NCBI GenBank assembly: GCA_965216325.1 | Contig: OZ244160.1 | Span: forward strand, 384,001 to 448,000 | From: Coraliomargarita sp. | GTDB taxonomy: Bacteria > Verrucomicrobiota > Verrucomicrobiia > Opitutales > Coraliomargaritaceae | Reading direction: 5' to 3' | DNA: 64,000 nucleotides | Shown: positions 18,387-61,500 of the stretch, one piece after another | Layout of the letters: the number at the start of each line of letters is the position of its first letter | How positions within the stretch are numbered: the stretch's first letter is position 1 | Notes under the pieces: model-generated | What the model saw: the letters and a program-made list of their open reading frames with translations, nothing else | Databases searched by the model: none | Told to the model about the DNA's origin: nothing | Program-made: the position numbers and the translations under genes

Positions 18387-18462
18387 AGACTACAGAAGCA
18401 TTCCCATCCTGTAAATACGGCCAATCGACCGTGTTTACAATATGACTTGTTGGGTGTAATCT
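18387..18462. promoter_or_regulatory. Operator palindrome 1 (18415-18434) inside a bidirectional sigma70-type promoter
   Basis: ATACGGCCAATCGACCGTGT; rightward TTTACA-17-TAATCT; leftward (minus strand) TTTACA-17-TAGTCT. Confidence 0.8.
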
Positions 18463-18674
18463 TCGTGGTAATTTTGGAATCCAAGTAATTAATTATGAAA
18501 AATACGACGCGCTCGAACGCGCGCTGCCACAACGACCTTTTCCGAGGTGCTTCCAACTCTAACGCGGCGATGCAGTCGATCCCCCGTCGGGCATTCATTA
18601 AAGCTGCTGCTGCCGCTACGGGCGCTTTCGTCCTGCCGCGCTTCAGTATCGGCCAACCCGGCCCGGCTGCCAAC
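18387..18674 (+). repeat. 288-bp promoter+RBS+Tat-leader cassette, copy 1
   Basis: Ungapped match to 21428-21715 with about 12 mismatches counted by eye. Confidence 0.95.
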
Positions 18675-19931
18675 AGCAAGATCAACCTAGCCTGGGTGGG
18701 TTTCAACAACATGGGCTTTTATGATCTGAATATCTGCGCCCACGGAAACAATGTGGTGGCCCTTTGCGACGTGGATCAAGAGGTTTTAGAGAAAGGAAAG
18801 AAGAAGTATCCCAATGCAAAGGTCTATACGGACTTCCGCAAGATGCTGACAGAGATGGACAACCAGATCGATGCCGTCGGTATAGCAACACCAGACCACA
18901 CCCATTTTGCCATCACGGCCATGGCCATGGGCATGGGCAAACACGTGTTCGTAGAAAAGCCCTTGGCTCACTCCGTGAGCGAGGTCAACGCCCTCAAAAA
19001 GCTGGCGACTGAAAAGCAGGTCGTCACTACAATGGGCAATCAGGGACACGCCTTCGAAGGGGCCTTTATGACCAAGGAGTGGTACGAAGCTGGTTTGATA
19101 GGCGAAGTACGCGAGGTGGTGTGTTGGACCAATCGTCCCGCAAATGGATATGGGTTCAGGATGGGGGACTGGAAGGGGTATCCCGAGGCAACCCCTGTGC
19201 CAAACCACCTCGACTGGGATCTTTGGAAAGGCCCTGTGACCAAAGATATCCCCTACAACGGTGCATTTCACCCCGGGTTCTGGAGGGGCTGGTGGGACTT
19301 CGGCTGCGGCGCCCTTGGGGATATCGGTTGCCATACCATCGACGCCCCCTACTGGGCATTGGGTTTGGATCAACCCGAAAGGATCGAGGTCGAGATGGAC
19401 GGAGAGCCCAACCCCTTCTTCACCCCAGCTGGTTCCATCGTAACCTACCACTTCCCGGCCCGGGGCAAGCAGCCTCCCGTCAAAGTCAAATGGTTCGAGG
19501 GCCCAAAACGACCACCTAAACCACCGGGATTCACCGGCAAAATGTCGCACGAAGGCGGTATGTTCATGCTGGGCTCAAAGGGCATGATCTTCCATAACGG
19601 CATGAGGCCACAAAGCGTTCGCTTATACCCCGATGATTTTTGGCAGGAGTATCGCACCAACGTTTCCAAGCAGGTTCCCAAAACCCTCAAGCGGATCCGA
19701 GGAGGCATCCACGGCCACTGGTTAGACTGTATCCGATACGGTGGCACCGCCCACTCCGACTTCAGCTATACCGCTCCCCTCACCGACATCATCATCAAGG
19801 GGACCTTGGCAATCCGAACCGGAAAAGGCATCAAAGTCGCTCCCGATGGAACCATCAGCGGTAATCCTCAAGCTGAGGCTCTGGTGGATGTTCCCGCCCG
19901 CAAAGGTTGGAGATTGGAAGACTTGGTTTAG
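18495..19931 (+). CDS. Gfo/Idh/MocA oxidoreductase, Tat-exported (paralogue 1)
   Basis: PRRAFIK Tat motif; ALCDVD, ATPDHTH, HVFVEKPL, MGNQGH, WRGWWDFGCGALGDIGCH. Confidence 0.95.
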   Translation: MKNTTRSNARCHNDLFRGASNSNAAMQSIPRRAFIKAAAAATGAFVLPRFSIGQPGPAANSKINLAWVGFNNMGFYDLNICAHGNNVVALCDVDQEVLEKGKKKYPNAKVYTDFRKMLTEMDNQIDAVGIATPDHTHFAITAMAMGMGKHVFVEKPLAHSVSEVNALKKLATEKQVVTTMGNQGHAFEGAFMTKEWYEAGLIGEVREVVCWTNRPANGYGFRMGDWKGYPEATPVPNHLDWDLWKGPVTKDIPYNGAFHPGFWRGWWDFGCGALGDIGCHTIDAPYWALGLDQPERIEVEMDGEPNPFFTPAGSIVTYHFPARGKQPPVKVKWFEGPKRPPKPPGFTGKMSHEGGMFMLGSKGMIFHNGMRPQSVRLYPDDFWQEYRTNVSKQVPKTLKRIRGGIHGHWLDCIRYGGTAHSDFSYTAPLTDIIIKGTLAIRTGKGIKVAPDGTISGNPQAEALVDVPARKGWRLEDLV

Positions 19932-19942
19932 GGGGAACGATC

Positions 19943-20671
19943 ATGAGAAACTGGCTTGTGGCGATGGTTGTGAGCGTGAGCATCATCATGCCGATGACTC
20001 TTACGGCGACTGAAAAAGACGAAGCTTGGGTCGATCTACTGGAGGATGGACTGAACGCATGGGGAGATTCACGGGGCTGGACCACGGCAGACGAGGTCGT
20101 GGTCAACCCAGACCATGAACAACAGCTGAAGGTGACCAAGGCCGGCAAATCCATAGCGGTGGTGGCAAAGAAAAGCCGAGCTGCCTACTTGCTGACGAAG
20201 GAGATGCATGGAGACCTTGAAGCAAAGATCGAGTTTATGGTACCGAAAGGTTCGAACTCTGGAATCTACTTCATGGGCCGATACGAGGTTCAGATTTTTG
20301 ACAGCTTTGGCAAAAAGAATGTCAATCACAGTGACTGCGGCGGAATCTATCAACGTTGGGGCAAGCACCGCGATAACGGTCATCCACCGAGAGTCAACGC
20401 ATCTAGCGCCCCTGGAACTTGGCAAAGCTATGAAGTGATCTTCCGCGCACCCCGCTTTGATACCAAGGGCAAGAAGACCGAGAACGCAAAGTTCATCAAG
20501 GTGGTGCACAACGGCAAAGTGATCCACGAAAACGTAGAGGTCACTGGACCTACTCGGTCGGCCATGAAAGAGATGGAACCAGAAGAAGCAAAAGGCCCCA
20601 TCCGAATCCAGGGCGATCACGGCCCCGTCGCTTTTCGCCTATTCAAGATTCGTCATATCCAATCAGACTGA
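19943..20671 (+). CDS. DUF1080 (3-keto-disaccharide hydrolase-like) protein
   Basis: Signal peptide from ATG 19943; NSGIYFMGRYEVQIFDS, PGTWQSYEVIFRAPRF, GPIRIQGDHGPVAFR. Confidence 0.92.
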   Translation: MRNWLVAMVVSVSIIMPMTLTATEKDEAWVDLLEDGLNAWGDSRGWTTADEVVVNPDHEQQLKVTKAGKSIAVVAKKSRAAYLLTKEMHGDLEAKIEFMVPKGSNSGIYFMGRYEVQIFDSFGKKNVNHSDCGGIYQRWGKHRDNGHPPRVNASSAPGTWQSYEVIFRAPRFDTKGKKTENAKFIKVVHNGKVIHENVEVTGPTRSAMKEMEPEEAKGPIRIQGDHGPVAFRLFKIRHIQSD

Positions 20672-21064
20672 AGGCTTTTTCATCTCTCACAGTATCTCTA
20701 TCGTCTTAAAATCACTATTTTCTATGACATAGTTGGTACCTTGTCGGTGATTTTGATGTAAGAACTATTAAACCCGAGCAAATCGGTTTCAATCCAGAAG
20801 CTCAGGGCATGGATCAGTAGGTCATCGGGGGCCAGGTGCACCTCGAAAGGATCGATTGCCACGAGATACAATCCATCTGGAGGAGTATGATATCACCACC
20901 GAAACGACTCACCCCTTGGCACCTAATGTCTATATTGAAAAGGGAGTGTCCTTTTCGCTGCTAGACAGGGCAGAGGGCAAAAAGTCGTCTTTAAGCTCTT
21001 TCGAGTGAATACGCCAGGAAGATAGGTTGATTAATTTGGTACAACTTCTCTTATAAGCAAAATC

Positions 21065-21427: not shown

Positions 21428-21503
21428 AGACTACAGAAGCATTCCCATCCTGTAAACACGGCCAATCGACCGTGTTTACAATATGACTTTTGGGGTGTAG
21501 TCT
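21428..21503. promoter_or_regulatory. Operator palindrome 2 (21456-21475) inside a bidirectional promoter
   Basis: TGTAAACACGGCCAATCGACCGTGTTTACA; TTTACA-17-TAGTCT on both strands. Confidence 0.8.
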
Positions 21504-21715
21504 TCGTGGTAATTTTGGAAGCCAAGTAATTAATTATGAAAAGTACGACACACTCGAACGCGCGCTGCCACAACGACCTTTTCCGAGGTGCTTCCCACTC
21601 TAACACGGCGATGCAGTCGATCCCCCGTCGGGCATTCATTAAAGCTGCTGCTGCCGCTACGGGTGCCTTCGTCCTGCCGCGCTTCAGTATCGGCCAACCC
21701 GGCCCGGCTGCCAAC
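21428..21715 (+). repeat. 288-bp promoter+RBS+Tat-leader cassette, copy 2
   Basis: Matches 18387-18674 at offset 3041. Confidence 0.95.
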
Positions 21716-22972
21716 GGTAAGTTGAATCTCGCATGGATTGGTTTAGGGGGGCAAGGTTCGCGTGATATCCGCGCTTGCGCAAATGGTAATAATGTGGTGG
21801 CCTTAGTGGATGTGGACCCCAGAGCCTTAGAAAAAGCAAAGGCTGCCTTTCCGAAGGCCAAATTCTACCAGGATTTCCGTGTCATGTTTGAGGAAATGGG
21901 AGATTCCATAGATGCTGTCGGCGTCGGGACCCCGGATCACACTCACTTCGCTGCCACCTATATGGCCATGAGTATGGGGATGCATGTCTTTGTGCAGAAG
22001 CCGCTGGTTCATACGATTCAGCAGGCCCGCATTTTGCAGGAGCTGGCAATTGATAAAAAGCTGGTGACCCAGATGGGTAATCAGGGGCATGCCTCGGGGG
22101 GAGCCCGCCTGGTCAAAGAATGGTATGAGGCTGGCCTGATCGGCGAGGTTCGAGAGGTCGTGGCATGGACCATTCGGCCTAGTCATGGTTATGGATTCGG
22201 CGGGAAGGTTCAAACTGCTTTTCCGGCGGCTGAACCCATTCCCGAAGGAATGGACTGGAATCTCTGGTTGGGGCCATGTGACAAGGAGATCGCATTCAAT
22301 CGCTCGTTCCACCCAAGGGGATGGCGAAAGTGGTGGGATTTCGGCTCCGGTGGACTCGGTGATATTGGTTGCCACACCATCGATACGGCCTACTGGGCGC
22401 TCGGTCTCGGTGCACCTGATAGCGTTGACGTGGAGATGCATGACGAGGTGAATCCAATCTTCACGCCCTATGGGTCTGTTGTCCATTTCAACTTCCCCGC
22501 ACGCGGCAAGCAACCACCCGTCACGGTAAAGTGGTATGAGGGGCCGACCCGCCCGCCGCTTCCTGAAGGCTATGACCAGGGATTGGAAGGAGAGGGTGGA
22601 TTGATGATTGTTGGTGAAAAGGGCGGAATTTGTCATCACGGGATGCGTCCAGATAGTCCAAGGCTCTATCCGCAGGAAAAATGGGACGCATACAAGGCGA
22701 ACCCTGAGCTCCGCGTCGCCAAGACACTCCCACGAACAAAAGGGATTTATCGAGATTGGATCGATGGCATCAAGAACGGTAAGGAAACATGCTCAGATTT
22801 CAGCTACGCAGCACCGTTGACCGAGACGATTCTACTCGGTACCCTTGCTATTAGAACCGGGCAAAAACTCACGTGGAATGCGAGTGATATGACAATCCGC
22901 GACAACGAAGCTGCTTCGAAGTTGATCAACCCTGAAGCACGTAAAGGTTGGCGCATTGAAGACCTCGCCTAG
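21536..22972 (+). CDS. Gfo/Idh/MocA oxidoreductase, Tat-exported (paralogue 2)
   Basis: PRRAFIK; IGLGGQG, GTPDHTH, HVFVQKPL, QMGNQGH, WWDFGSGGLGDIGCH. Confidence 0.95.
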   Translation: MKSTTHSNARCHNDLFRGASHSNTAMQSIPRRAFIKAAAAATGAFVLPRFSIGQPGPAANGKLNLAWIGLGGQGSRDIRACANGNNVVALVDVDPRALEKAKAAFPKAKFYQDFRVMFEEMGDSIDAVGVGTPDHTHFAATYMAMSMGMHVFVQKPLVHTIQQARILQELAIDKKLVTQMGNQGHASGGARLVKEWYEAGLIGEVREVVAWTIRPSHGYGFGGKVQTAFPAAEPIPEGMDWNLWLGPCDKEIAFNRSFHPRGWRKWWDFGSGGLGDIGCHTIDTAYWALGLGAPDSVDVEMHDEVNPIFTPYGSVVHFNFPARGKQPPVTVKWYEGPTRPPLPEGYDQGLEGEGGLMIVGEKGGICHHGMRPDSPRLYPQEKWDAYKANPELRVAKTLPRTKGIYRDWIDGIKNGKETCSDFSYAAPLTETILLGTLAIRTGQKLTWNASDMTIRDNEAASKLINPEARKGWRIEDLA

Positions 22973-22994
22973 AGTTCGGGGAGGCCGCGATCGG

Positions 22995-24515
22995 ATGAAA
23001 ACTTCTCATCACTGCGTCATCTCGACCTGGCTTGCATCCACTATTTGGGTCTGTGGTGTTAGCTTCGCTGAAACGAACATGGAGGGCGTGCCTAACATCG
23101 CAACAGTGCCTTCTCCCAATATCATTGTTATCGTAGCTGATGATATGGGGTGGGGGGACACTGGCTATAACGGCAATCAAATACAGCAGACCCCAGCTCT
23201 GGACCAAATGGCCCAGGAAGGCATCCGGTTCGACCGCTTTTACGCCGCGAGCACAGTCTGTGCTCCGACCAGGGCCTCGATTATGACTGGGCAGAACGGT
23301 GCGCGCTTGGGGATTTGGCACTGGGGAAGCTCACATGTACAAGACCGCGATATCCTGATCTCACGTACGCTAAAAGAAAAAGGCTATATCACGGGGCATT
23401 TCGGAAAATGGCATCTGGGCCTGCTCGATGAAGCGGGCACACACGACTATACCAGTGGGCCGCGCACCCATGAAAAAGACTTCAGCCCGCCATGGCGGAA
23501 CGGGTTTGACATCTGTTTTAGCACCGAGAACGTCACCCCGACGTGGGATCCTATGATACTCCCGGATCAGGGGAAGTGGGGGGATCCCAGACGCGAGGCG
23601 ACTGGGCTTTGGGGTAATAACTACTGGAATGAGAAAGGTGAGATGATTGATCATGACGATAATCTCTCAGGCGACGACAGTCGAGTGATCATGGATCGCG
23701 TGATCCCCTTCGTGGAAGCACAATCCAAAACACCTAGCCCTTTCTTTGCCTATATCTGCTTTCATACGCCTCACACTCCAACCGTCAGTGGCGGCAAATA
23801 TCTAGAAATGTATGAAGGCCATGAAGGGCGCCACCATTATGGTGCCATTACTGCGATGGACGAGCAAATCGGACGTTTGCGCCAGACCTTACATGAACTA
23901 GGTGTCGAGAAGAATACCCTGATCTGGTTTGTTTCAGATAATGGAGCCGCTAAAAACAATAGCAAACACTTTGGTGAATACGGCGGTTTCGGATCAAATG
24001 GACCATACCGTGGATGGAAATGTTCGTTATACGAAGGAGGAATACGAGTGCCGTCAATCTTAGTGTATCCGAAGCGTTTCAAGCAACCTTCTGTGGTAAA
24101 AATGCCGTGTGTAACGTCGGATATGTTCCCTACAATAGCGACAATTCTCGGCGATTCGCAAACGCCACGCAGTCAACCCCAGGACGGCATAGATATACTG
24201 CCCGCAATAGATGGGACAATGAATTACCGGAAAGAACCGATCGGGTTTGCCTATGAAAAGAAAGCTGTCTGGATGACCCAGCAGTATAAACTTGTTGTCG
24301 CTCCCGGTAATAATACCGACCTCACTGAGCTGTACGATCTGAAGAACGACCCCTATGAAACAACTGACCTTGCCGGTAAATATCCTAAAAAAGTATCGCA
24401 GATGAAAAATGAACTCACCAAGTGGATACAATCCTGCAACCGCAGCAGCGGCACCCGCTACAAACACCTGTCATTGCCAAAAGATCCTCAGATAGGGGGA
24501 GACAATAACTTATGA
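22995..24515 (+). CDS. S1 (formylglycine-dependent) sulfatase
   Basis: PNIIVIVADDMG, CAPTRASIMTG, GKWHLG, VSDNGA, YEGGIRVP; ATG 22995 preferred because it follows a GGAGG RBS. Confidence 0.95.
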   Translation: MKTSHHCVISTWLASTIWVCGVSFAETNMEGVPNIATVPSPNIIVIVADDMGWGDTGYNGNQIQQTPALDQMAQEGIRFDRFYAASTVCAPTRASIMTGQNGARLGIWHWGSSHVQDRDILISRTLKEKGYITGHFGKWHLGLLDEAGTHDYTSGPRTHEKDFSPPWRNGFDICFSTENVTPTWDPMILPDQGKWGDPRREATGLWGNNYWNEKGEMIDHDDNLSGDDSRVIMDRVIPFVEAQSKTPSPFFAYICFHTPHTPTVSGGKYLEMYEGHEGRHHYGAITAMDEQIGRLRQTLHELGVEKNTLIWFVSDNGAAKNNSKHFGEYGGFGSNGPYRGWKCSLYEGGIRVPSILVYPKRFKQPSVVKMPCVTSDMFPTIATILGDSQTPRSQPQDGIDILPAIDGTMNYRKEPIGFAYEKKAVWMTQQYKLVVAPGNNTDLTELYDLKNDPYETTDLAGKYPKKVSQMKNELTKWIQSCNRSSGTRYKHLSLPKDPQIGGDNNL

Positions 24516-27500
24516 AAAACATATTTTATCAGGTGTGCCTCGCCACGCTTCTCTTGCTAGTCGTCACCGCTACGGCGGCTGACAATAAAATGGAGGAAGC
24601 TTCAAAAGAGAATCAGTTTCAGGTAGTAAGCTCAAATCTTTTACAAGAATACGTGAAGCGTTTTAACGCAGATGATGAGGAGCTCTACTCGAACATCAAA
24701 AACAAGGATGCCTTTGAATACCTTAACAACAATATTCCGCTGTTTGAATGCCCGGATGAGGATTTTCAGCGCAACTGGTATTTCCGCTGGTGGACCTTTC
24801 GTAAGCATATAAAGTCTACACCGGATGGTTATGTTGTCACCGAATTTCTACCCAAAGTACCTTGGTCGGGAAAATATAACACAATCAGTTGTCCGGCGGG
24901 GCATCAATACTATGAAGGTCGCTGGCTTCATGACACCAAAATCCTGGATGACTACTCATCATTCTGGTTGCGCAAGGGCGGAGAGCCGCGACGCTACAGT
25001 TTCTGGATCGCCGACTCATTTTATAAGCGTCACCTTGTGACTCCGAACAAGGACTTTATTATCGGTTTTCTGGATGATTTAATTAAAAATTATCAGGCAT
25101 GGGAAAAATCTCATAAAAAAGGCAACGTGCTATTTGCTCAATCCGCAGACAGAGATGGCATGGAAATGGCAATTGGCGGCGACGGGTTCAGACCGACGAT
25201 CAACTCCTATATGTACGGTGATGCTCTAGCTATTGCTGAAATTGCCAAGCTTGCTGGCAAAACTGATATCTCACAAGAATACAAGGCTAAAGCTTTAGAG
25301 ATTAAGCATGAAGTTCAGGCGAAACTCTGGGATAATGACGCAAAGTTCTTTAAAGTTCTGCGACCTCATAAAAATCAATTAGAAAAAGTTCGTGAGCTTC
25401 ACGGCTACACTCCGTGGTACTTCAATCTGCCGGACAAAAACAAGGGCTACGAAACGGCTTGGGAGCAACTGATGGATGCCAAGGGATTTTACGCACCCTA
25501 TGGTCCAACCAGCGCAGAGCAACGTCATCCTGGATTTCAAATATCCTACAGGGGTCATGAATGTCAGTGGAATGGACCGTCATGGCCATTTGCAACATCT
25601 CAAACTTTAACAGCTCTCGCCAACGTGCTGAATCATTACCCGCAGAATGTAGTATCTAAAGAGGACTACTTCGAAACCTTGAAGATCTACACCAAAAGCC
25701 ACCAATTTAAGCGAGAAGACGGAGAGGTGGTTTCGTGGATTGACGAGAACCTGAATCCATACACAGGTGATTGGATCTCCAGAACAAGGTTAAAGCAATG
25801 GAACAACGGAACCTGGGATAAAGGCAAAGGTGGCAAGGAACGCGGCAAGGATTATAATCACTCTACTTATAATGACTTGATCATCACTGGATTGGTGGGG
25901 CTGCGCCCCCGTGCTGACAATGTGATAGAAGTAAATCCCTTGCTGCCAGAGAATACCTGGGACTATTTTTGTTTGGATAATGTCCGCTATCACGACCGAA
26001 TCCTCACGATCATCTGGGATAAGACCGGAGAGAAGTATGGCAAAGGAAAAGGACTTTCCGTATATGCAAACGGTGAAAAGATCGCGGCAGCCCCAACCCT
26101 GACAAAGCTTACGGGAACGCTTGACGGTATCGCGCCTATTCCCTACGCGCAAAGAGCTCCTATTGCCACGGATGACTCCACTCATTTGAAAGTGCTGGCG
26201 GTAAGAGCTTCGCATACAAACCCAAGTGACACGACAAGCGGTCTGATCCAAAACAGTATCCCCTATGGCTCAGGTGACGAGAGCATCAAACGATGGACCT
26301 CATGGCCGCAGACAGGCAAAAGCCAGTGGGTAGAGTTGGATCTCGGCGACAAAGCATCGGTTAAATCGCTCGGGGTATTCTGGTTTCAGGACAATGCTGG
26401 TGTCAAAGTTCCTGCGTCGTGGCATGTCGAAGCTTCTGATGATCAGGCCGGCCCATGGGTTAAAGTGCCCTCGACTGGTGGTGACTTCGGCGTCAAGCTG
26501 GATGTCTATAATACCGTTCAATTCGGAGGAACACTAAAGTATCGCTATGTGCGCATCGTCATGAAACCCACCAAGGGTAAAGCACTCGGGATTCTATCAA
26601 TAGATGTTACGGGAACGCCTGACGGTACTGCGGTTATTCCATACTTGCAAAAAAAAACTGTTGCCGCGGATCGACCTAACATCGTCATCATTCTCGCTGA
26701 TGATGCGGGATTCTCGGATCTCGGCTGTTTCGGTGGAGAGATAGAGACCCCCAACCTTGACTCCCTGGCGGCCAACGGACTTCGCTTCACCGAGTTTTAT
26801 AACTCGGCACGCTGTTGGCCGACACGAGCTAACCTCATGACCGGACGTTATGACAATTTTCTCAATAAAAACAGTATCACCATACCTCAGGTTCTTAAGA
26901 CAGCAGGATATAATACGGCCATGGTTGGAAAATGGCACCTCGGGGGGCATACATTTGATCCAAACGGTCCGAACGCTCCGATTAATCGGGGGTTCGATGA
27001 CTTTTACGGCACCCTGCATGGAGCTGGCTCCTACTATGATCCAATGACTCTGACTCGCAATAGAAAGAGCATTGAGCCCGATAATGAGAGTTTCTACTAC
27101 ACCGACAAGATCGGCGAGGAGGCTGTTCGCCAGATAAAAGCTCTGGCCAAGGCAGAGAAACCCTTCTTCCAATACGTTGCCTTCACTGCACCACATTGGC
27201 CCATTCACGCTCCGGAAAAAACCATTCAGAAGTATATCAAACGATACGAGGGTGGCTGGGAGAAACTGCGCCAAGACAGGTATGCGCGCATGCTCAAGAT
27301 GGGGATCATCGATGAAAAGCGCTTCCCTCTGCCGCCGATGGAGCCGAACGTCAAACCATGGAATGAGGTGGATCATAAACCCTGGCGTATCCGCAACATG
27401 GCAGTCTACGCCGCAATGGTTGACCATATGGACCAGGCTATCGGCCGAATCATTGATGCTCTGAAAAGCTCCGGACAGTTTGACAACACACTCATCTTCT

Positions 27501-28636
27501 ATGCTTCCGACAACGGTGCCTGTCCTGAAGTACTTCACGGAAAAGGCTGGGGTACTGCCGACAACATCCTGGCTAAGGCCAAACAACAGGGCAAAAAAGT
27601 TGCCGTGGGTAATGTTTACAGTGTCCCGATGGGGGGACCGTTGACCTACGGCAGTGTGGGGCCGAATTGGGCCTGCGCCCAGAACACTCCGATGCGCCGT
27701 TACAAGAAGAACGTCCACAATGGCGGCGCATGCACACCCGCAATCATGCACTGGCCCGTCGGTCTAAAGACGGAACCTGGCTCCATCTCCCGGCAAAGGG
27801 GGCATGTGGTCGACTTGATGGCTACCTGCCTTGAGCTTGCAGACGCCAAGTATCCCGAAACGCTTAACGGAATTCCCCTCAAGCCGCACGCAAGCCTCTC
27901 TCTGGTTCCTGCCATCGTCGGCAAGGACCTGCCGCGGGATCATGCTTATTTCTTTAATCACGAGGGCACGCACGCCGTTGTAAAAGGCAATTACAAGATT
28001 GTTCGCGAACCCAATAGCGCCTGGGAGCTCTATGACCTGTCTGAAAACCGAACCGAGACCAAGAATATTGCGCAGAAACACCCTGAAGTTGTCAGTGAAC
28101 TCTCCAAGCTATGGGAACGCTGGTCCAAGGGGAAAAAAACTCCCGTTGCCGCGGCTAACCGGGACGTGCAAAAAGCTCCTGCTGCCGCGGATAAATCCAC
28201 TCATTTGAAAGTGGTGGCGGTAAGAGCTTCGCATACAAACACAAGTGACACGACAAGCGGTCTGATCCAAAACAGTACCCCCTATGGATCAGGTGACGAG
28301 AGCATCAAGCGATGGACCTCATGGCCGCAGACAGGCAAAAGCCAGTGGGTAGAGTTGGATCTCGGCGACAAAGCATCGGTTAAATCGCTCGGGGTATTCT
28401 GGTTTCAGGACAATGCTGGTGTCAAAGTTCCTGCGTCGTGGCATGTCGAAGCTTCTGATGATCAGGCCGGCCCATGGGTTAAAGTGCCCTCCTCTGATGG
28501 TAAGTTCGGCGTCAAGCTGGATGTCTATAATACCGTTCAGTTCGGAGGAACACTAAAGTATCGCTATGTGCGCATCGTTATGACACCAACTGAGGGTAAA
28601 GCACTCGGAATTCTATCAATAAAAATAAAGGAGTAG
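24512..28636 (+). CDS. Fusion: MGH1/GH63-like glycoside hydrolase + discoidin-like domain + S1 sulfatase + duplicated discoidin-like domain
   Basis: N-terminal YFRWW, DRDGME, RPTINSY, CQWNGPSWPF, DYNHSTY; central RPNIVIILADD, CWPTRANLMTG, GKWHLG; two copies of VRASHT...QWVELDLG...LGILSI. Confidence 0.88.
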   Translation: MKNIFYQVCLATLLLLVVTATAADNKMEEASKENQFQVVSSNLLQEYVKRFNADDEELYSNIKNKDAFEYLNNNIPLFECPDEDFQRNWYFRWWTFRKHIKSTPDGYVVTEFLPKVPWSGKYNTISCPAGHQYYEGRWLHDTKILDDYSSFWLRKGGEPRRYSFWIADSFYKRHLVTPNKDFIIGFLDDLIKNYQAWEKSHKKGNVLFAQSADRDGMEMAIGGDGFRPTINSYMYGDALAIAEIAKLAGKTDISQEYKAKALEIKHEVQAKLWDNDAKFFKVLRPHKNQLEKVRELHGYTPWYFNLPDKNKGYETAWEQLMDAKGFYAPYGPTSAEQRHPGFQISYRGHECQWNGPSWPFATSQTLTALANVLNHYPQNVVSKEDYFETLKIYTKSHQFKREDGEVVSWIDENLNPYTGDWISRTRLKQWNNGTWDKGKGGKERGKDYNHSTYNDLIITGLVGLRPRADNVIEVNPLLPENTWDYFCLDNVRYHDRILTIIWDKTGEKYGKGKGLSVYANGEKIAAAPTLTKLTGTLDGIAPIPYAQRAPIATDDSTHLKVLAVRASHTNPSDTTSGLIQNSIPYGSGDESIKRWTSWPQTGKSQWVELDLGDKASVKSLGVFWFQDNAGVKVPASWHVEASDDQAGPWVKVPSTGGDFGVKLDVYNTVQFGGTLKYRYVRIVMKPTKGKALGILSIDVTGTPDGTAVIPYLQKKTVAADRPNIVIILADDAGFSDLGCFGGEIETPNLDSLAANGLRFTEFYNSARCWPTRANLMTGRYDNFLNKNSITIPQVLKTAGYNTAMVGKWHLGGHTFDPNGPNAPINRGFDDFYGTLHGAGSYYDPMTLTRNRKSIEPDNESFYYTDKIGEEAVRQIKALAKAEKPFFQYVAFTAPHWPIHAPEKTIQKYIKRYEGGWEKLRQDRYARMLKMGIIDEKRFPLPPMEPNVKPWNEVDHKPWRIRNMAVYAAMVDHMDQAIGRIIDALKSSGQFDNTLIFYASDNGACPEVLHGKGWGTADNILAKAKQQGKKVAVGNVYSVPMGGPLTYGSVGPNWACAQNTPMRRYKKNVHNGGACTPAIMHWPVGLKTEPGSISRQRGHVVDLMATCLELADAKYPETLNGIPLKPHASLSLVPAIVGKDLPRDHAYFFNHEGTHAVVKGNYKIVREPNSAWELYDLSENRTETKNIAQKHPEVVSELSKLWERWSKGKKTPVAAANRDVQKAPAAADKSTHLKVVAVRASHTNTSDTTSGLIQNSTPYGSGDESIKRWTSWPQTGKSQWVELDLGDKASVKSLGVFWFQDNAGVKVPASWHVEASDDQAGPWVKVPSSDGKFGVKLDVYNTVQFGGTLKYRYVRIVMTPTEGKALGILSIKIKE
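26177..26602 (+). repeat. 426-bp intragenic domain repeat, copy 1
   Basis: Near-identical to 28196-28621 at offset 2019. Confidence 0.95.
28196..28621 (+). repeat. 426-bp intragenic domain repeat, copy 2
   Basis: Near-identical to 26177-26602. Confidence 0.95.
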
Positions 28637-28638
28637 AG

Positions 28639-29772
28639 ATGAAACGGTTTATAGCATTAGCAATGGCTGGAGTACTTGTTACAGGGTGCACCACGACAAA
28701 ACAGAGTGGTAGTTTAAAACTGAACAAGGCAGAGTTTGTAAAAACTATCGACGGCAAGAAGACAAATCTGTATATACTGAAAAACAGCAACGGCGTAGAA
28801 GTTGCTGTAACCAACTACGGAGCCCGTACAGTCGGTATATCTGTTCCCGATAAAAATGGTCAATTCGAGGATGTTATCAGCGGTTTTAATACCCTCGATG
28901 AATACATCAACTGCCCGGAGCCTTTTCACGGTCCCATAGTAGGTCGTGTAGGCAACCGTATTGCCCGAGGTAAATTCAAGCTAGACGGCAAAGAATACAA
29001 TGTGTCGATCAACAACGGGCCAAATCATCTGCACGGCGGCCTCAAAGGGTTCCACCATCGTGTCTGGGATGTAAAAAGTGTGAGCGATAAGGCAATCGCC
29101 CTGCACTACCTGTCAAAAGATGGTGAGATGGGCTATCCCGGTAACCTCAGCGTCGATGTACGCTACGCCCTCAACGATAAAAATGAATTGTCCATATCCT
29201 ATAAAGCAACAACGGATAAGAAAACAGTCGTCAACCTGACCTGGCACCCCTTCTTCAATCTTGCAGGAGAAGGGACGACCATCAATGATCACATCATGGA
29301 AATCAATGCCGATGCCTATACTCCGGTTGATGAAACTCTGATTCCTTTCGGGGAAAATGTGACCGTGAAAAATACTCCTTTCGATTTTCGCAAACCAAAG
29401 GCCATCGGCCGTGACCTGGATCAGCAGAAAAACAACACACAGCTCCAACACGGTGCCGGGTATGATCATAACTGGGTACTTAAGCGCCCTGATGACAAGT
29501 CTATGGCATTTGCCGCACGTATAACGGAACCACAAAGCGGACGAGTTATGGAGATCTACACTCAGGAACCTGGACTCCAGTTTTACGGAGGAAACTTTTT
29601 CGATGGAAAGACGAATGGTAAAAACGGAAAGCCGCAGATCCATCGCGGAGCAATGGCACTTGAAACACAAAAGTTCCCCGATGCACCGAATCAGCCGAAT
29701 TTTCCGTCAGTCGTTTTGAAACCGGGCGAAGTATACGAAACCAGCTCTATCTATCGCTTTTCGGTTAGGTAG
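28639..29772 (+). CDS. galM: Aldose 1-epimerase (mutarotase), lipoprotein
   Basis: LVTGC lipobox; GRVGNRIA, NHLHGG, GYPGNL, NLTWHPFFNL, GYDHNW, PGLQFYGGNF, ALETQKFPD. Confidence 0.95.
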   Translation: MKRFIALAMAGVLVTGCTTTKQSGSLKLNKAEFVKTIDGKKTNLYILKNSNGVEVAVTNYGARTVGISVPDKNGQFEDVISGFNTLDEYINCPEPFHGPIVGRVGNRIARGKFKLDGKEYNVSINNGPNHLHGGLKGFHHRVWDVKSVSDKAIALHYLSKDGEMGYPGNLSVDVRYALNDKNELSISYKATTDKKTVVNLTWHPFFNLAGEGTTINDHIMEINADAYTPVDETLIPFGENVTVKNTPFDFRKPKAIGRDLDQQKNNTQLQHGAGYDHNWVLKRPDDKSMAFAARITEPQSGRVMEIYTQEPGLQFYGGNFFDGKTNGKNGKPQIHRGAMALETQKFPDAPNQPNFPSVVLKPGEVYETSSIYRFSVR

Positions 29773-29897
29773 TCCCAGAGAAATTAACAAGAGCAGAATA
29801 AGACCCCAGTCAAATCCGGCTTAACTCTTGAGGCAAAGCCGTTACAATTAGCTTCAGCCCACCTCGCCCCAAAAATGAAATATCGCTCATAAATAAT

Positions 29898-32800
29898 ATG
29901 CTGAAAAGACTAACAGTCTTCACCCTGGCCTTGTTATGTGTCATCCGATTTTGCGCAGGTGCAATCAGCTTCGGAAACGAAAACTTAACGTTTTCGATCA
30001 CTGATGATGGATTGGTTCAGAGTGTTACCAGTAATGGAGAACATGTAAAGGGGGCACACGAAAGGTTAGGTCCTCTTTTTAAGGTCACGCTTTTAGAGAA
30101 TGTCTTTGGTCTAGATGAAGGCCGACGCAGGGAGGTCGGTCTACGCCCCATTTCTCAGGACAACCAGTTGATCACTCTGGCGCCAGAGAGAGGAGAACTC
30201 CCCCAGTTTACCTTCACGACCATTGATAAGGGGTCCTACTTTGTCCTCAAGCTGGTTTCCATGAGAAACCCTAAGGATGAACACGCTATTCAGCTAAAGA
30301 TGGGGAGGGTCAGCGGCACGGATTGGTTACCTCTTGATGACGTGACTAAGAAGACCTATCGTCGGGGAAACGAACCGCATTTCTTTGGTGTGTTACAGCG
30401 GTCTCCCAGTCTCCCCTTAGGGAGTATTGCGATGTGGGCGAATGGCGGGGATCACGATGAGAGGCTTTACCAGATTTGGACGACAGAAGACATACCACAT
30501 CCAAAGGTTGATGGTGAGTGGACTGTTGAACGAGCCAAGCAATGGAATGCGGAGTATGCCCGCGATGTTCGCAATGGTTATAAGAATATGATGATCATTG
30601 GTCCCCGTAAACCAGAGGATTTAAGGCCGCTGGTGGATATCGGTGAGAAATTTGGCATGAAGCAAATATACATGCACCTGAATACTTGGGGGGGTAGATA
30701 CTGGGCTTCGGATCGGGACAACCTAGACGTGAATAGGAACATCTTTCCTACGGGGACTGACGGGATGATCGATTTCGCTAACTATCTTGATCGCAAAGGG
30801 ATGCAGTTAACATTCAGGACAGTCAGTTACGCGCTGGGTGCGAAACACCCGGACTATCTTTCGGAAAAAAGGATCGATCCCCGGTTGGCTTCATGGTGGC
30901 AGGGGACTTTAGCGGAAGATGTGGATGCCCAGGCAACACAAATCAAGGTAGCTGAGGGGAGGGAGCATTTTACTCACTATAACGCAAACCGACGCTGGAA
31001 AGAGATCTTTGGCATGCGTTGTATGCAAATTGGCAATGAATTGATCACTTTCAAAGAGTATGCCAACAATGGTGATGGCACGTGGACTCTGAAGGGGTGC
31101 AAGCGCGGATTTGGTAGAACTGAAGCGAGCGCTCACCAGGGAGGTGTCATCGCGAAGGGGCTATACCGTATTTATGGGATCGCCTTTGCTCCGGATCCGG
31201 ATAGCAGCATGATGCATGAAATGGCGAAACGCTTTGGTGAATTTCATAATGAGGTGCATGCGGGAATCGTCAATTTTGATGCCATGGAAGTACAGGAAAT
31301 GATGTACTACTATGGTGACACGAAGTTTACCGGAGAGGTGTATCGTCACATCGACCACCCAGTGAATGGCAGTACGTCTGGACCTGCGCTGACCTGGGGA
31401 TATTATGAGCCGTTGTTTCATTCCGTGCGTAACAGCGGAGTGCAAAGCGATGTGGCAATACCGAAGACGATTCCTGCTGCCCGTGATATGAAGATTGGAC
31501 TGCACCAGAGCCATTGGTCCGCTAGTAGTCCTTACGCGTATGTGTGGGCGATTCCTGGTAATGCGGCAGCTGGTAGGGGGATTGACTTAAGTGCACAGGC
31601 GGGGTTTCATGATGTCACTATGGAGATGGTCAATCAACACGGACTGATTGATTATTACGCAAACGTCTTTCAGCAATGGAGTCAGTATGGCTCACAACTG
31701 CCAAAAGCAATAAAGCAGCGCATCTTCTCATCATTTATTCCCCATGGCCGTTATAGTCTGATTGATGAAGTGTTTCGATTTGAGGGGGAAGGAGATAACC
31801 TCAGTGTCGTGCCCTTTAGAGTCATGAAACGAGAGGGTGTTGATCGGGGGTGGACCTATCACCAAGAGCACGGCACAGTATATCCATACCAATACATTCG
31901 TCCTCGCAGTAATTCATTTTCTGGCAGCATCTTAAAGGTTAAGAACCCCTATAAAGCTCAGGTCCCAGAATTCATTATTCGCGTGATGCCTGACTTTAAT
32001 CGTGATATCACGACAGCTCGATCGACATCGAAGCGAGAGAGTCCACGCGACAAGGCATTCAACGATATGTTGGACAAGTTTCAGGCTGCCTCTGGAATCA
32101 CAATCGAGGAGCAGTCGGCTGACGAGATGAACGGGAGGCAGATCAGCTACAGGATTATGCCGGATCCCGATAAAGTAAATAACAAGCAGGGGCCGAATCG
32201 TTTTGTCGCAGTGGAACGGGGCGTCGGAATCGTCTGTACCAATGAGACTGATAAGCCACTTGCGCTTGTTCATGGCAACGGCAACAGCCTGCCATCCTAT
32301 CGAGTCAAGACCGACATTACCAAGGCTGGAGGATTGGGGCTGGTGGTTACTGGTGACGGCAGCGGCGCAATTCTTGTGGTGCGCATTGGCGGGCAGGGGA
32401 CGCGTGATTATGTCGTCCATCTTGATTTTAAAGGGAGGCGGTACATTGAAATTCCCAGTCCACAAGTGTCATGGGCGGATGCACGTTGGCCATTCTTTAA
32501 CGCGTATAAGCGCTGGAGAGGGAATGGCATTCGTACCATTTCGCTCGGAATCGACAGGGTAAAACCCAATAGCCAAGCGTCGGTACTGCTTGAAGACCTC
32601 AGGTTTCTGCCGGAGAAACCCTCCGCTTTGAACAATCCTCGTATTAATGTTGGCGAAGGCAGCCTTTCGATCCACGGGAGGATCCCTTCCGGGCACTACC
32701 TCTGGTATCAAGGAGGTGATCAAGTTGGCGTCTACGACTTAAACTGGAATAAGCTCACAGATTTGCCTGTAACGCTTCATGGCGCGACTGCGGCATCGGG

Positions 32801-32942: not shown

Positions 32943-32991
32943 ACAATTGATACATGACCAAAATCTAACGTTTTTCGAAAAGTTTCTAAAA

Positions 32992-36684: not shown

Positions 36685-36703
36685 CCTTATACTGTTCTAT
36701 ATT

Positions 36704-43852: not shown

Positions 43853-43878
43853 GAAAAATTCAAAAAAGGTGATACTCC

Positions 43879-44175
43879 ATGATTACCCAAAAAAGAAAAA
43901 CCATTCTAACGTTAGCTGCCCTGGCCTTTGCCGGTCAATTGTCAGCCGCGGAAACTGCCGGCACTTCTCCTAACGTTATCGTCATTTTCACCGATGATAT
44001 GGGCTATGCCGATGCGGGTTGCTACGGCGCGCAAGATATCAATCCCCCCAACTTCGACGGCCGCGTCAGCTGGATCAAAGATTTAAACAGGGAAGTGAGT
44101 GCTTTCCCGACTTCAACACTCGACTGGAACGGACTCGATCGCGCCTGGCGTAAACTCAAAGAACTGGAGAACTGA
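43879..44175 (+). pseudogene. Chimeric sulfatase N-terminal fragment
   Basis: Signal peptide plus [24 protein letters not shown], then an unrelated 38-aa tail; no CxPxR motif. Confidence 0.85.
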
Positions 44176-44176
44176 A

Positions 44177-46951: not shown

Positions 46952-47102
46952 CAGCAGTCACCCTGAATCTTTACAATCCCACATCCTTTGATGCTGAGGT
47001 AAAGGTTCTGGTTGAATCGGATCGCATTGCGAAAGATCCCATTGCGATTGCAGTCAGCGCAAATGACCAAATTTTTGTTAAACAAACAACAGGGAACACA
47101 AA

Positions 47103-49142: not shown

Positions 49143-49428
49143 GCGGCAGCCTACTACAGTTCACCGACTCGAGTGATTCACTGCTATTTTTGGCAACTTT
49201 CACGCTCGCACCCCCGCCTGAACACGGCCGATTGGCCGTATTGCCAGTCTGTTTCTGGTCCTTTAAACTGCATGCAGTTTCAGCTAATAGTCTCTGATTT
49301 AACAGGCTCAGCACCACCACTTGTTGCACCTAAATTATCATAATAATGAAAAGAATATCCAAATTATTTCCGGTCGTTGCCCTTTTTACCGGCCTTAGCC
49401 TCTGCACGACGCATGCCGTCGATGTGAT
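48576..49428 (+). repeat. ~850-bp direct repeat copy 1 (domain X + stop + promoter + signal peptide)
   Basis: Near-identical to 50966-51806, with one 12-bp indel in the 5' UTR. Confidence 0.97.
49222..49269 (+). promoter_or_regulatory. Operator palindrome 4 (49222-49241) plus promoter
   Basis: ACACGGCCGATTGGCCGTAT; TTGCCA-17-TAAACT. Confidence 0.85.
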
Positions 49429-51532: not shown

Positions 51533-51806
51533 GCGGCAGCCTACTACAGTTCACCGACTCGAGTGATTCACTGCTATTTTTGGCAACTTTAGCGCTCGCA
51601 CCCCCGCCTGAACACGGCCGATTGGCCGTGTTGCCAGACTGTTTCTGGTCCTTTATACTGCAGGCAGTTTCAGCTAATTGCCTCTGATTTAACAGGCTCA
51701 GTTGCACCTAAATTATCATAATAATGAAAAGAATATCCAAATTATTTCCGGTCGTTGCCCTTTTTACCGGCCTTAGCCTCTGCACGACGCATGCCGTCGA
51801 TGTGAT
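50966..51806 (+). repeat. ~850-bp direct repeat copy 2
   Basis: Near-identical to 48576-49428. Confidence 0.97.
51612..51659 (+). promoter_or_regulatory. Operator palindrome 5 (51612-51631) plus promoter
   Basis: ACACGGCCGATTGGCCGTGT; TTGCCA-17-TATACT. Confidence 0.85.
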
Positions 51807-53885: not shown

Positions 53886-53933
53886 GCACGGTTGATTGAC
53901 CGTGTATGCAGGAATGTTTTCTTTTGTTAGCAT
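53886..53933 (+). promoter_or_regulatory. Operator palindrome 6 (53886-53905) plus weak promoter
   Basis: GCACGGTTGATTGACCGTGT; TATGCA-17-TAGCAT. Confidence 0.7.
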
Positions 53934-56789: not shown

Positions 56790-56836
56790 ACACGGTCGAT
56801 TGGCCGTGTTGTCGGCTGCCCTTTATCTGCTATTAT
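56790..56836 (+). promoter_or_regulatory. Operator palindrome 7 (56790-56809) plus promoter
   Basis: ACACGGTCGATTGGCCGTGT; TTGTCG-16-TATTAT with a TGn extension. Confidence 0.75.
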
Positions 56837-59797: not shown

Positions 59798-59931
59798 GAC
59801 GGTTTGTCTGTGATCAAGGGGCTACGTCGGGATGTCTTATAGTGAGTATATAGATAGCTTGCTCTGCCTAACGCCTAAATAGTCCGCATTCGCCTACCAT
59901 TTACAAAAAAATCCTAGCAATCTAGCTATCC

Positions 59932-61018
59932 ATGAAAAAAATCACTGCTCGTATGGGGCATCTGTCTCGTCCTGCTCTTACCAATTACCACTTCCGCAGC
60001 CACCTACCATGTGGATGCGGAGGGCGGCAACGACACTAACAGCGGAACATCACCTGCGGCCGCTTGGCACTCGCTCGCGCATGCCAGTGCGCAGACCTTT
60101 GCGCCGGGCGATCAGATTCTGCTGCAGCGTGGCGATACCTTTCTCGGCACACTAATACTGGACAACGAGAGCGGCACGCAAGCTGAACCCATTATCGTGG
60201 GAGCTTACGGCACAGGCGATCTGCCCGTGATTGATGCCGCCGGTTACCTGGCGGGAGTGAATATCCGTGATGTCGAATACATTGAGGTGCAGGATCTCGA
60301 AATTACATCCAATGGTGGCCCCGTGTTGGATGGCTCCGCAGGCCTCGCCGAAAAGGACGAGTGGAACGCCGATAAAGCACGCTACGGCGTCTACGTCAAT
60401 GGCATCACGGGCACTGCGGTGGGACATGTGACGCTGCGCAACCTCTACATCCATGACATCTTCCCCACTAGCGATCGGGCCACCGAAGGTGCCAACCCGA
60501 CGACCTCCTACACCGTTTCGGGACTCGACCTGAGTCGTTACGGTGGCGCATTCGGCGAAACACTTGTATTTGACGTTACATATACTCAAACTGGCGGAAC
60601 CGAAGTTGTATTCAACTCAACTGGGCGTGTCGGAGTCGCCAATATTACTGGTCTAGATAGCCAGATAGATGAGAATGAAGCACTGACGGCTGCTGTTGAC
60701 TTCAATGAGGGTGCCTCAACATTCAGCGGAGATTTTGCTAACCTTTCGATTGGCTTCACCAGAGTAGCTCCGGGTGGGGTAAATGACGGCGAAACATGGG
60801 AGGTGACTCACGGTTCAGCGCCGACCACCATCAGTCGAGCCTACAGCAGCCGGATTGCCACGTTTGCAAGCTCTGACTATTTCACTATTAGTAACGTTTC
60901 TGGTGCAATGAACCTAGGGGCGGTGGATGTTGAAATTGTTGACATCCCCGAGCCTTCCTTCTGCGCCGCGCTTCTCGGTCTTGGCTGTCTCACGCTGATC
61001 CTCCGCCGTCGTCAATAA
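59932..61018 (+). pseudogene. Chimeric beta-helix N-terminus / PEP-CTERM protein with frameshift in an A7 tract after the ATG
   Basis: Removing one A from 59935-59941 gives MKKSLLVWGICLVLLLPITTSAATYHVDAEGGND..., in frame with track ORF 60011; ends IPEPSFCAALLGLGCLTLILRRRQ. Confidence 0.8.
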
Positions 61019-61050
61019 GGCTAGGATGGCTATCTATCACTAAGACCTAC

Positions 61051-61179
61051 AAAGCCATCCGGTATACTCTGAATCATTGGGTGAAACTATGTCGATATGT
61101 CTATTACAGCGATGCAGGTATTGACAATAATGCCGCTGAAAGGGCCGTGCGCCCGACTAAGCTTGGCATGAAGAATTGC
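61051..61179 (+). mobile_element. IS66-family transposase (TnpC) internal fragment
   Basis: KAIRYTLNHWVKLCRY...IDNNAAERAVRPTKLGMKN. Confidence 0.85.
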
Positions 61180-61453
61180 CGCTTACCCACTGAAGACTTA
61201 TTTTAAATCGCTAGGTTTTAACTTGGAACTTCAGGCGGAAGACAGTGATGAAGGTTTTCGTGCAGTCCATGATGACAAGGATTACCTTTCCAATCTGGAA
61301 TACGACGAGGAGGACGCTAGTGACCTAAAATGAAAATACATAAGTCCAGGTAAGGGGATGAGTTCTCCCAGTCAGCGCTCTATAGTCTTCAATTGACAGA
61401 CAAAAAACAACTTATCTCGAAGAACCATAATAGTATTCATTCTAGACTGAGAG

Positions 61454-61500
61454 ACACGGTCGATTGACCGTGTTTACATGATGATTTTTTTAGATATAGT
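61454..61500 (+). promoter_or_regulatory. Operator palindrome 8 (61454-61473) plus promoter
   Basis: ACACGGTCGATTGACCGTGT; TTTACA-16-TATAGT. Confidence 0.8.

Follow-up and report, generated by a model that had tools for sequence, protein, structure and literature searches.

Which protein reads the 20-bp palindrome that recurs in front of the glycan-degradation genes of a Coraliomargarita genome, and does it turn these genes on or off? The palindrome was noticed in a 64,000-nucleotide stretch of DNA, hereafter the window, which covers positions 384,001-448,000 of contig C1 of genome G000 (3.06 Mb, a single contig). Verrucomicrobiota are major consumers of sulfated algal glycans, and how they switch on their very large enzyme sets is, to our knowledge, essentially unstudied. 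A literature search, judged by titles and abstracts, turned up no paper that deals with the regulators of such loci in Verrucomicrobiota or with kinase sensors of the CBM32 type. The comparisons below suggest that the palindrome is probably the operator of a NarL/LuxR-type response regulator encoded in the same gene island, which would activate about 22 sigma-70-type promoters. The parts of this reading differ in firmness: that the palindrome is the operator of one dimeric transcription factor is very likely, that the factor is the island's own response regulator is likely from the sequence comparisons, and that it acts as an activator is a view we favour with some reserve.

Searching the window with the pattern ACACGGYCRATYGRCCGTRT at up to three mismatches on both strands gave 17 strand-matches against 0.04 expected, and none of 100 shuffled controls reached 17. 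The eight sites listed in an earlier note on this stretch (18415, 21456, 40083, 49222, 51612, 53886, 56790 and 61454) were each recovered at the same coordinate, all with the zero to two deviations claimed for them. A further match at 35240, with three mismatches, is weak and lies within a coding frame. The genome-wide scan returned 19 sites at up to two mismatches and none with the reversed pattern as a control; in a twentieth site, at 483,517, the left end has been replaced by a G run. All 20 lie inside C1:402,415-496,418, that is, from window position 18,415 to window-equivalent 112,418, so that the presumed regulon fills a single 94-kb island and extends 48 kb past the window end. A weight matrix built from the sites scored them at 21.1-35.5 bits, compared with 15.3 bits for the best match elsewhere in the genome. 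The island has a G+C content of 51.3% vs 53.3% for the genome.

The operator consensus is a 20-bp palindrome, (a)ACACGGYCRWTYGRCCGTGT(t), which is frequently 22 bp long (aACACGG…CCGTGTt) and whose four central bases, mostly GATT, are not palindromic. Positions 7 and 14 read CA at two of the 20 sites and TG at three, which form no Watson-Crick pair; the sequence itself, beyond its pairing, is therefore conserved. The half-site ACACGGTCAA is new to us, and in the literature searched the 12-mer cores of the palindrome turned up in no bacterial paper, the matches being two plant papers. Other palindromic dyads are strongly over-represented across the G000 genome, namely GGCAATG-N6-CATTGCC (about 41 copies), GGGCGC-N8-GCGCCC (about 42) and ACAGGC-N5-GCCTGT (about 40). 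These may be elements resembling repetitive extragenic palindromes (REP) or attC sites, unrelated to the island operator.

The relation of the palindrome to the promoters was examined after orienting each site toward the nearest gene start. At 19 of the 20 sites, the last T of the palindrome is also the first base of a hexamer matching TTGACA in at least four of six positions (at least five of six at 15 sites), and TAnnnT follows 16-18 bp past the -35 at 16 sites; the -35 and -10 features coincide at random genomic positions with a frequency of 0.00086. The -10 box is missed at site 463,359, where a T11 run lengthens the spacer to 19 bp, at sites 457,115 and 489,321, with the hexamers CATTAT and TATTAG, respectively, and at site 470,463, an orphan without a credible gene. 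The hexamers given earlier for the window were reproduced by the promoter-phase scan, both those of the -35 (TTTACA, TTGACC, TTGCCA, TATGCA and TTGTCG) and those of the -10 (TAATCT, TAGTCT, TATAAT, TAAACT, TATACT, TAGCAT, TATTAT and TATAGT), with spacers of 16-17 bp. A separate scan for consensus promoters between 40 and 60 kb rated four of the five sites there as promoter-like, and its top match in this interval, at 40102-40130, agrees with the consensus in 11 of 12 positions. Many spacers are T-rich and end in cTGcTAnnnT, an extended -10.

An open reading frame (ORF) starts 37-269 nucleotides (nt) past the palindrome in 21 of the 24 promoter orientations. Every window site has such a start downstream, as was claimed; of the three orientations lacking one, two belong to site 470,463 and the third is the leftward copy at 405,456. 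Promoter-like sequence stands on both sides of sites 402,415 and 405,456, and probably also of 496,399, and sites of this kind would serve divergent units. Because the palindrome and the -35 have one T in common, the operator would span about -54 to -35, with its centre near -44.5, provided that transcripts begin about 7 nt past the -10. It thus abuts the -35 at a fixed position across the regulon, as is typical for class II activation, the position relative to the true start being predicted.

Two observations on individual promoters are added here. Several -35/-10 spacers of PEP-CTERM and GH127 promoters contain or adjoin homopolymer runs (T10, T11, T11 and G8), at window-equivalents 77,815-77,865, 79,359-79,410, 89,892-89,940 and 89,600-89,646 (genome sites 461,815, 463,359, 473,892 and 473,646, respectively). 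These spacers measure 16-19 bp, the tract length varies among paralogous copies and metagenome relatives (T6-T8), and phase variation is possible at these spacers. Contigs of four DNA runs placed on 460-475 kb showed only assembly-graph forks at repeated cassettes, with no change of length seen at the homopolymer spacers. The orphan operator at 470,463 (window-equivalent 86,463-86,482) is found where a PEP-CTERM-like gene and a ThuA gene, the latter with its 3' end, converge; it has a poor -10 and shares an identical core with site 473,892.

The earlier remark that the window holds no obvious cognate regulator is literally right, and the probable regulator is encoded just past the window end:

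C1:454,216-456,834 (window-equivalent 70,216-72,834), minus strand: kinase-regulator pair, 6.2 kb past the window end

The response regulator (215 amino acids, aa; C1:454,216-454,863) consists of a receiver domain (Response_reg, 1.6e-21) and a GerE helix-turn-helix (HTH; 5.6e-15). Inspection of its translation shows the acidic pair, the aspartate in LLDLNLP and the T and K positions. It thereby has the make-up of the NarL/FixJ family, a receiver with a phospho-acceptor aspartate and a C-terminal GerE/LuxR HTH. The top NCBIfam models are NarL-like; the best equivalog reaches 115 bits against a cut-off of 242, and NarL itself 105 against 250. Because these scores stay far below all equivalog cut-offs, the protein is not an orthologue of NarL, UhpA, RcsB, GacA or any other regulator named by NCBIfam equivalogs. 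The adjacent kinase (655 aa) has a signal peptide, about 430 periplasmic residues without a Pfam match, one membrane helix, and HisKA_3 (1.1e-5, 26.4 bits with a cut-off of 24) and HATPase_c (1.1e-7) domains, and is thus a kinase of the HisKA_3 type. Among the ORFs scanned with Pfam, the only other DNA-binding protein in the motif span was a HipB-like HTH, with several ORFs of 75-100 aa left unscanned; an AraC-family gene at window 3581-4471 lies outside the span, beside GH31 and MFS genes.

The periplasmic part of the kinase was modelled from a 13-sequence alignment (pLDDT 84.9, pTM 0.85). With a probability of 1.00, Foldseek matched the model both to the tandem CBM32 of ZmpB and to CBM32 domains that occur singly (target TM 0.57-0.61, root-mean-square deviation about 3 A over 108-133 columns); it also matched it to neuropilin b1b2, the C domains of factor VIII and CBM32 modules attached to GH29 fucosidases. 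The model thus has the CBM32/discoidin (F5/8 type C) fold; a weak lead in the ESM Atlas to F5/8 type C, at 0.86, was borne out by this fold search. Since the model matches CBM32 domains, it is plausible that the kinase sensor is a glycan-binding tandem CBM32/discoidin-like module.

In the proposed mechanism, a glycan-derived signal or oligosaccharide would bind the CBM32-like sensor of the kinase, and the HisKA_3 kinase would then phosphorylate the adjacent response regulator. The regulator dimer would bind the palindrome directly upstream of sigma region 4 and activate all island promoters together in the class II manner, as LuxR does at the lux box. Binding by this regulator, activation in preference to repression, the start positions and the signal are what we infer here. 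That a dimeric factor beside RNA polymerase co-regulates the island, as the earlier note had proposed, gains in silico support from the island-exclusive sites, their fixed phase, their conservation and the recurrence of the same geometry elsewhere.

The recurrence was found around relatives of the kinase. Full-length homologues (E <=1e-20) occur in 29 of 400 other genomes sampled from the phylum (30 of 401 with G000), often in multiple copies, and each of the 13 loci of this kind that were examined has, after the kinase, a regulator homologue of 35-60% identity. In genome G006, TTTTGGTCAATTGACCATAT and then TTGGCA-17-TAGTAT stand 213 bp upstream of a 41%-identical kinase, and the inner 12-mer is identical to that of the island motif. 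Two genomes of the same genus, G002 and G001, carry at least 13 and at least 7 sites, respectively, of CCACGCAYAWWTRTGCG[GT]GT, the motif of a third operator family, which holds CCGCAYAWWTRTGCGG and whose last T begins TTGnnn or TTTACA; nine of these sites have TAnnnT at 16-17 bp, and most others have a -10-like hexamer near that distance. They are distributed over contigs C15, C18, C39, C43, C44, C71, C76, C112 and C163 of G002 and C7 and C41 of G001 (loci L233, L235 and L240-L251) and are often neighbours of sulfatase genes and kinase paralogues. The distance from the site to a kinase paralogue downstream is about 110-130 bp on G002:C43 and G002:C18; on G001:C9 it is 130 bp, from a variant palindrome. 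In G002, TTGTGCG recurs 9 bp downstream of the proximal half-site.

G000 itself has a paralogous system at 2,404,813-2,407,494, around which nine matches to CATCGCACRTATGWGCGATG were found in 2,382,962-2,423,161, vs two for the reversed control. One of the nine (2,418,598) has a degenerate half-site. The -10-like boxes of these sites are at a distance similar to that in the island, and the -35-like sequences are weak. Judged from these matches, G000:C1:2,382,962-2,423,161 is a second, separate regulon with a 20-bp palindrome of its own; loci L223 and L224 cover part of it. The recognition helix of the regulators reads Y-T-x-x-I-Y in the GGTC-type systems (the G000 island and G006:C30) and [YH]-[VI]-R in the GCAC-type systems (G002, G001 and the G000 paralogue). 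The regulators of G385 and G151, for which no operator was found, also read Y-T-x-x-I-Y. This pairing of recognition helix with half-site agrees with the model, in a small set of systems whose groups are also clades. Looking for a palindrome fused to the -35 next to a kinase-regulator pair of this family revealed further regulons at three other loci, and the rule may be of use for annotating genomes of the phylum.

A de novo palindrome search covered 40-120 kb around the kinase homologues of G385, G006 and G151. Its candidates did not hold: CCCCGAC-N2-GTCGGGG in G385 resembles terminators, and TTCCA-N5-TGGAA in G151 is mostly within coding DNA. The 12-mer core GGTCAATTGACC is enriched vs the control in G006, G012, G170, G385 and G151 (e.g., 13 vs 3); it was rejected as an operator elsewhere, as only the one beside the G006 kinase was promoter-like among six contexts read.

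The island motif itself, as a repeated element, is confined to G000 among the genomes searched. None of 60 relatives has more than two matches, which is no more than the reversed-pattern control, and among 400 genomes sampled from the phylum 29 have one match each and none has more. The motif and the kinase are absent together: three genomes of the same genus lack the motif, and their kinases of this family are at most 36% identical to the island kinase. A looser pattern, ACACGGYCNNNNGRCCGTGT, run over genome contigs gave at least 117 single scattered matches in unrelated phyla and was discarded as chance-level.

Metagenomes searched with a stricter pattern yielded 37 loci, eight of which (L181, L187, L197, L199, L201, L205, L206 and L209) align to the island at 70-94% nucleotide identity. 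In these relatives the gene order is rearranged and the palindrome and its -35 phase are kept, while the spacers and flanks have diverged, which bears out the earlier view that the motif is conserved on its own. The comparison of L201 with site 440,790 (window 56790) is an example: the palindrome is identical in 20 of 20 positions, whereas the -35 reads TTGACC vs TTGTCG and the -10 CATAAT vs TATTAT. L201 also keeps an orthologue of site 53886, and L181 keeps the site next to the kinase gene, with a kinase N-terminus 69% identical over 59 aa. The other 29 loci include many terminator look-alikes (A run, hairpin, T run) in unrelated G+C contexts.

In L201 (4834-4853), L205 (915-958) and L187/L199 (3056-3127), the points at which synteny with G000 jumps between island segments coincide exactly with operator-promoter cassettes. 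The cassettes thus act as boundaries between modules in the metagenome relatives. L206 (927-1082, minus strand) contains a remnant of a GerE-type HTH, 42% identical to the C-terminus of the regulator, with an in-frame stop and 57 bp from an operator copy.

Activation by the island regulator is favoured because the operator position is invariant across unrelated promoters and paralogous regulons, because the paralogous G000 regulon has weak -35 sequences, and because NarL/LuxR-type regulators usually activate. The same operator and regulator might instead act in repression, the dimer, perhaps with a third subunit on the -35, occluding the -35/UP-element region and leaving on a glycan signal. 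The quality of the promoters speaks for this: 15 of the 20 -35 hexamers match at five of six positions instead of being weak, many -10 boxes are good and some carry TGn, so they could fire without an activator, which is untypical of strictly activator-dependent promoters. Moreover, the proximal half-site TTGACCG resembles the -35 that follows at a 9-bp offset (TTGACGG, TTGACCG), the TTGTGCG of G002 is likewise repeated, and the repeated half-site on the -35 could be a third, repressing binding position. However, operator positions usually vary within one repressor regulon, whereas here they do not vary across contexts and paralogous regulons; the second G000 regulon has weak -35-like sequences after the palindrome, as in activator-dependent promoters; and substrate-sensing two-component systems of catabolic loci mostly activate. 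Repression is, on these grounds, unlikely. Further points also weigh against the favoured reading. The predicted centre at -44.5, calculated from predicted starts, is 3 bp upstream of the classical class II position of -41.5. Nothing points to autoregulation: site 457,115 flanks the kinase gene, 281 bp upstream of its start, but the side of the site that faces the kinase-regulator operon lacks promoter-like sequence, and the promoter points away, toward a sulfatase gene. Site 470,463, between convergent genes, faces no credible ORF. The link of recognition helix to half-site comes from few systems related by descent. Finally, no recurrent palindrome was found near the closest kinase homologue, in G385 (43%), nor near those of G006:C11 and G151, so the family association is frequent but not universal in these searches.

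The palindrome might also belong to another factor, either the AraC-family protein encoded at window 3581-4471 or a small island protein that escaped recognition, and the two-component system would then be a mere neighbour. The AraC-family gene is only 14 kb away, to the left of the first site, and binding adjacent to the -35 is also known of activators of the AraC type; the PEP-CTERM part, in turn, contains several ORFs of 75-100 aa that either were unscanned or could be placed in no family. On the other hand, this gene stands beside the GH31 and MFS genes with no site nearby, and two insertion sequence (IS) elements lie between it and the island; each AraC monomer has two HTH motifs, and its usual targets are long repeats, direct or asymmetric, not an 8-4-8 perfect palindrome. 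The association of palindrome, kinase and regulator repeats in four further loci, with the recognition helix tracking the half-site, and makes a different factor distinctly improbable. A role as structural or mobile DNA, that is, as hairpin terminators or insulators, as repeats of the REP or miniature inverted-repeat (MITE) kind, or as recombination sites that shuffle promoter-gene cassettes, is very improbable. It is true that each palindrome can fold into an 8-10-bp hairpin (-12 to -16 kcal/mol), that many of the unrelated metagenome matches are terminators, and that metagenome synteny breaks at cassettes, the L201 homologies to 440,664-440,811 and 477,142-477,311 meeting inside the palindrome. 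Yet terminators are unlikely because only one of the five palindromes in 40-60 kb has a T tail, and that on the minus strand only; the tails read TTTACA or TTGACN, without T runs. The unpaired CA and TG at positions 7 and 14 show that sequence is conserved and not pairing only. A known RNA family is excluded, as Rfam gave no match at the gathering threshold in the whole window. The case of a randomly placed or mobile repeat, raised by the earlier note as a possible refutation, is unlikely because no copies exist outside the island and the sites are phased to genes, 21 of 24 orientations facing a start at the distance given above. Neither terminal repeats nor target duplications were seen, and breakpoints are necessarily intergenic, where the sites lie.

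The operator of the NarL/LuxR-type island regulator may be compared with known systems. The lux box of Vibrio fischeri and the tra boxes are likewise inverted repeats, of 20 or 18 bp, bound by a dimer with a LuxR/GerE-type HTH; they lie against or partly over the -35, with a centre near -42, and mediate class II-type activation. LuxR and TraR are, in contrast, switched by an acyl-homoserine lactone on the N-terminal domain, whereas in the island regulator the HTH is fused to a phospho-receiver domain and the partner protein is a membrane kinase. The operator sequences are unrelated, and the island operator, centred at about -44.5, has one base in common with the -35 and not several. Closer in protein architecture are the NarL/NarP 7-2-7 heptamers, the 20-bp DosR/DevR box and the RcsB box, whose factors combine a receiver and a GerE HTH with a HisKA_3 partner; operators of the NarL/FixJ family are palindromic with half-sites of 7-10 bp, and some are located immediately upstream of the -35. 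The sensor of NarL-family kinases is a four-helix bundle, whereas that of the island kinase is tandem CBM32/discoidin-like in the model. The hybrid systems of Bacteroidota polysaccharide utilisation loci resemble the island in that a periplasmic glycan-sensing kinase inside the locus switches the locus on, and the kinase family has similarly grown large in glycan specialists, one genome having up to 27 first-look candidates. The hybrids are single chains with a beta-propeller/Y_Y_Y sensor and an AraC-type output, while the island has a separate kinase and regulator, a CBM32-like sensor (from the model) and a LuxR-type output. By sequence, the island motif would be a new operator of the NarL family, its notable features being the CBM32-like sensor and the family-wide operator-promoter module. 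Conceptually, it is still a two-component system with a palindromic operator.

A bolder and doubtful extension is that these loci represent a phylum-wide, so far undescribed regulatory system of glycan degraders in the Verrucomicrobiota, in which diversifying kinases with tandem-CBM32 sensors and LuxR-type regulators act through fixed promoter modules. Each module would consist of a distal half-site, a proximal half-site and a -35 hexamer at a 9-bp offset, the proximal half-site being itself -35-like (TTGACC in the island, TTGTGC in G002). The regulator dimer and sigma region 4, which have related HTH folds, would read this three-part array on one DNA face. If this were true, a simple code between recognition helix and half-site would make regulons and glycan specificities predictable from sequence across the phylum, and the portable promoter cassettes might be shuffling points for island genes and might be phase-variable via their spacer T and G runs. 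The glycan of the sensor, activation by the regulator and the paralogous systems as separate glycan regulons are now directly testable hypotheses.

According to Pfam and NCBIfam, the units behind the sites encode four sets of Gfo/Idh/MocA oxidoreductases with DUF1080 (3-keto-disaccharide hydrolase) proteins, two GH29 fucosidases, one GH95, two GH127-like enzymes, two MGH1-like hydrolases (one a sulfatase fusion), at least six sulfatases, an aldose epimerase, a ThuA protein, a xylose-isomerase-like TIM barrel and a beta-helix/PDZ protein, together with two Verru_Chthon-A/GspK-like proteins, about eight small PEP-CTERM proteins and three InlB B-repeat proteins of 1819-2712 aa. From this gene content, the substrate is presumably a sulfated, fucose-containing glycan. 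Nearly all transcription units of the island have an upstream site, the exceptions being the kinase-regulator operon and the HipBA module. With about 22 promoters and some 45 genes under one operator, the regulon would thus be unusually clean and complete; it comes with a specific candidate sensor-regulator pair and would join PEP-CTERM and very large surface proteins to the signal of the fucosidases and sulfatases. The sites and genes within the window are as follows:

16308..18377, minus strand: GH127-like glycoside hydrolase, 689 aa (Glyco_hydro127M 2.5e-20, GH127 catalytic domain 3.9e-17)
18415-18434: operator (ATACGGCCAATCGACCGTGT) common to two divergent promoters, 18387..18462
18415, minus promoter: -35 TTTACA 18415-18410, -10 TAGTCT 18392-18387; GH127-like ORF start 37 nt past the palindrome
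18415, plus promoter: -35 TTTACA 18434-18439, -10 TAATCT 18457-18462; Gfo ORF start 60 nt past the palindrome
18495..20671, plus strand: Gfo/Idh/MocA oxidoreductase (478 aa) and DUF1080/3-keto-disaccharide hydrolase (254 aa), from Pfam
21456-21475: operator (ACACGGCCAATCGACCGTGT) in 21428..21503, with -35 TTTACA 21475-21480 and -10 TAGTCT 21498-21503; duplicate of the 18415 cassette, its leftward promoter copy facing no ORF
21536..38930, plus strand: eight-gene unit, a putative operon from its same-strand packing
40083-40102, plus strand: operator (ACACGGTCGATTGGCCGTAT) in 40083..40130, with -35 TTGACC 40102-40107 and -10 TATAAT 40125-40130
40188..49142, plus strand: DUF1080 protein, GH95 (910 aa), beta-helix/PDZ protein (950 aa) and sulfatase (662 aa), from Pfam
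49222-49241, plus strand: operator in 49222..49269, with -35 TTGCCA and -10 TAAACT; serves the GH29 alpha-L-fucosidase at 49346-51532
51612-51631, plus strand: operator in 51612..51659, a duplicate cassette with -35 TTGCCA and -10 TATACT; serves the GH29 alpha-L-fucosidase at 51724-53484
53886-53905, plus strand: operator (GCACGGTTGATTGACCGTGT, two deviations) in 53886..53933, with the weakest -35, TATGCA, and -10 TAGCAT; serves a sulfatase ending at 56268
56790-56809, plus strand: operator in 56790..56836, with -35 TTGTCG, a 16-bp spacer and an extended -10, TGcTATTAT
57079-58500, 58439-59689 and 60011-61018, plus strand: Gfo, DUF1080 and PEP-CTERM-like (335 aa) genes behind site 56790
61454-61473, plus strand: operator (ACACGGTCGATTGACCGTGT) in 61454..61500, with -35 TTTACA and -10 TATAGT
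61697 to beyond the window end, plus strand: 2712-aa surface-type protein behind site 61454, with InlB B-repeat (Flg_new_2) domains

The eight-gene unit comprises, in order, a Gfo oxidoreductase, a sulfatase, a fusion of an MGH1-like glycoside hydrolase with a sulfatase and an F5/8-type-C domain (1374 aa), an aldose 1-epimerase, a 1014-aa protein of unknown function, a 1245-aa Verru_Chthon-A/GspK-like protein, a 258-aa protein of unknown function and a second Gfo oxidoreductase. Pfam agrees with the earlier naming of the downstream genes as Gfo oxidoreductases, DUF1080/GH95, two GH29 and a sulfatase; the supposed glycoside-hydrolase-like gene after 61454, however, encodes the InlB B-repeat protein. 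The two pairs of duplicated sites, 18415/21456 and 49222/51612, were also confirmed, and the remaining four contexts have unrelated flanks.

Several minor features of the island were noted. The duplications at window 18415-22972 and 49222-53484 are recent and in tandem, each with a complete operator-promoter-gene cassette. The two 478-aa Gfo genes and the two GH29 genes that resulted have upstream regions that are nearly identical within each pair. The ATG of the GH127-like gene (window 18377-18415, minus strand), 37 nt past the palindrome, is only about 2 nt after the predicted start site, and its mRNA may be leaderless or the true start codon may be further in. A toxin-antitoxin pair of a HipB-like HTH and a HipA kinase lies among the PEP-CTERM genes of the island at window-equivalent 91,285-92,842 (genome 475,285-476,842). 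At the left border of the island, an rve-type IS transposase at window 4852-6718 interrupts a sulfatase gene, whose 5'-truncated part lies next to it, and an ISL3-family transposase is found at window 14953-16191.

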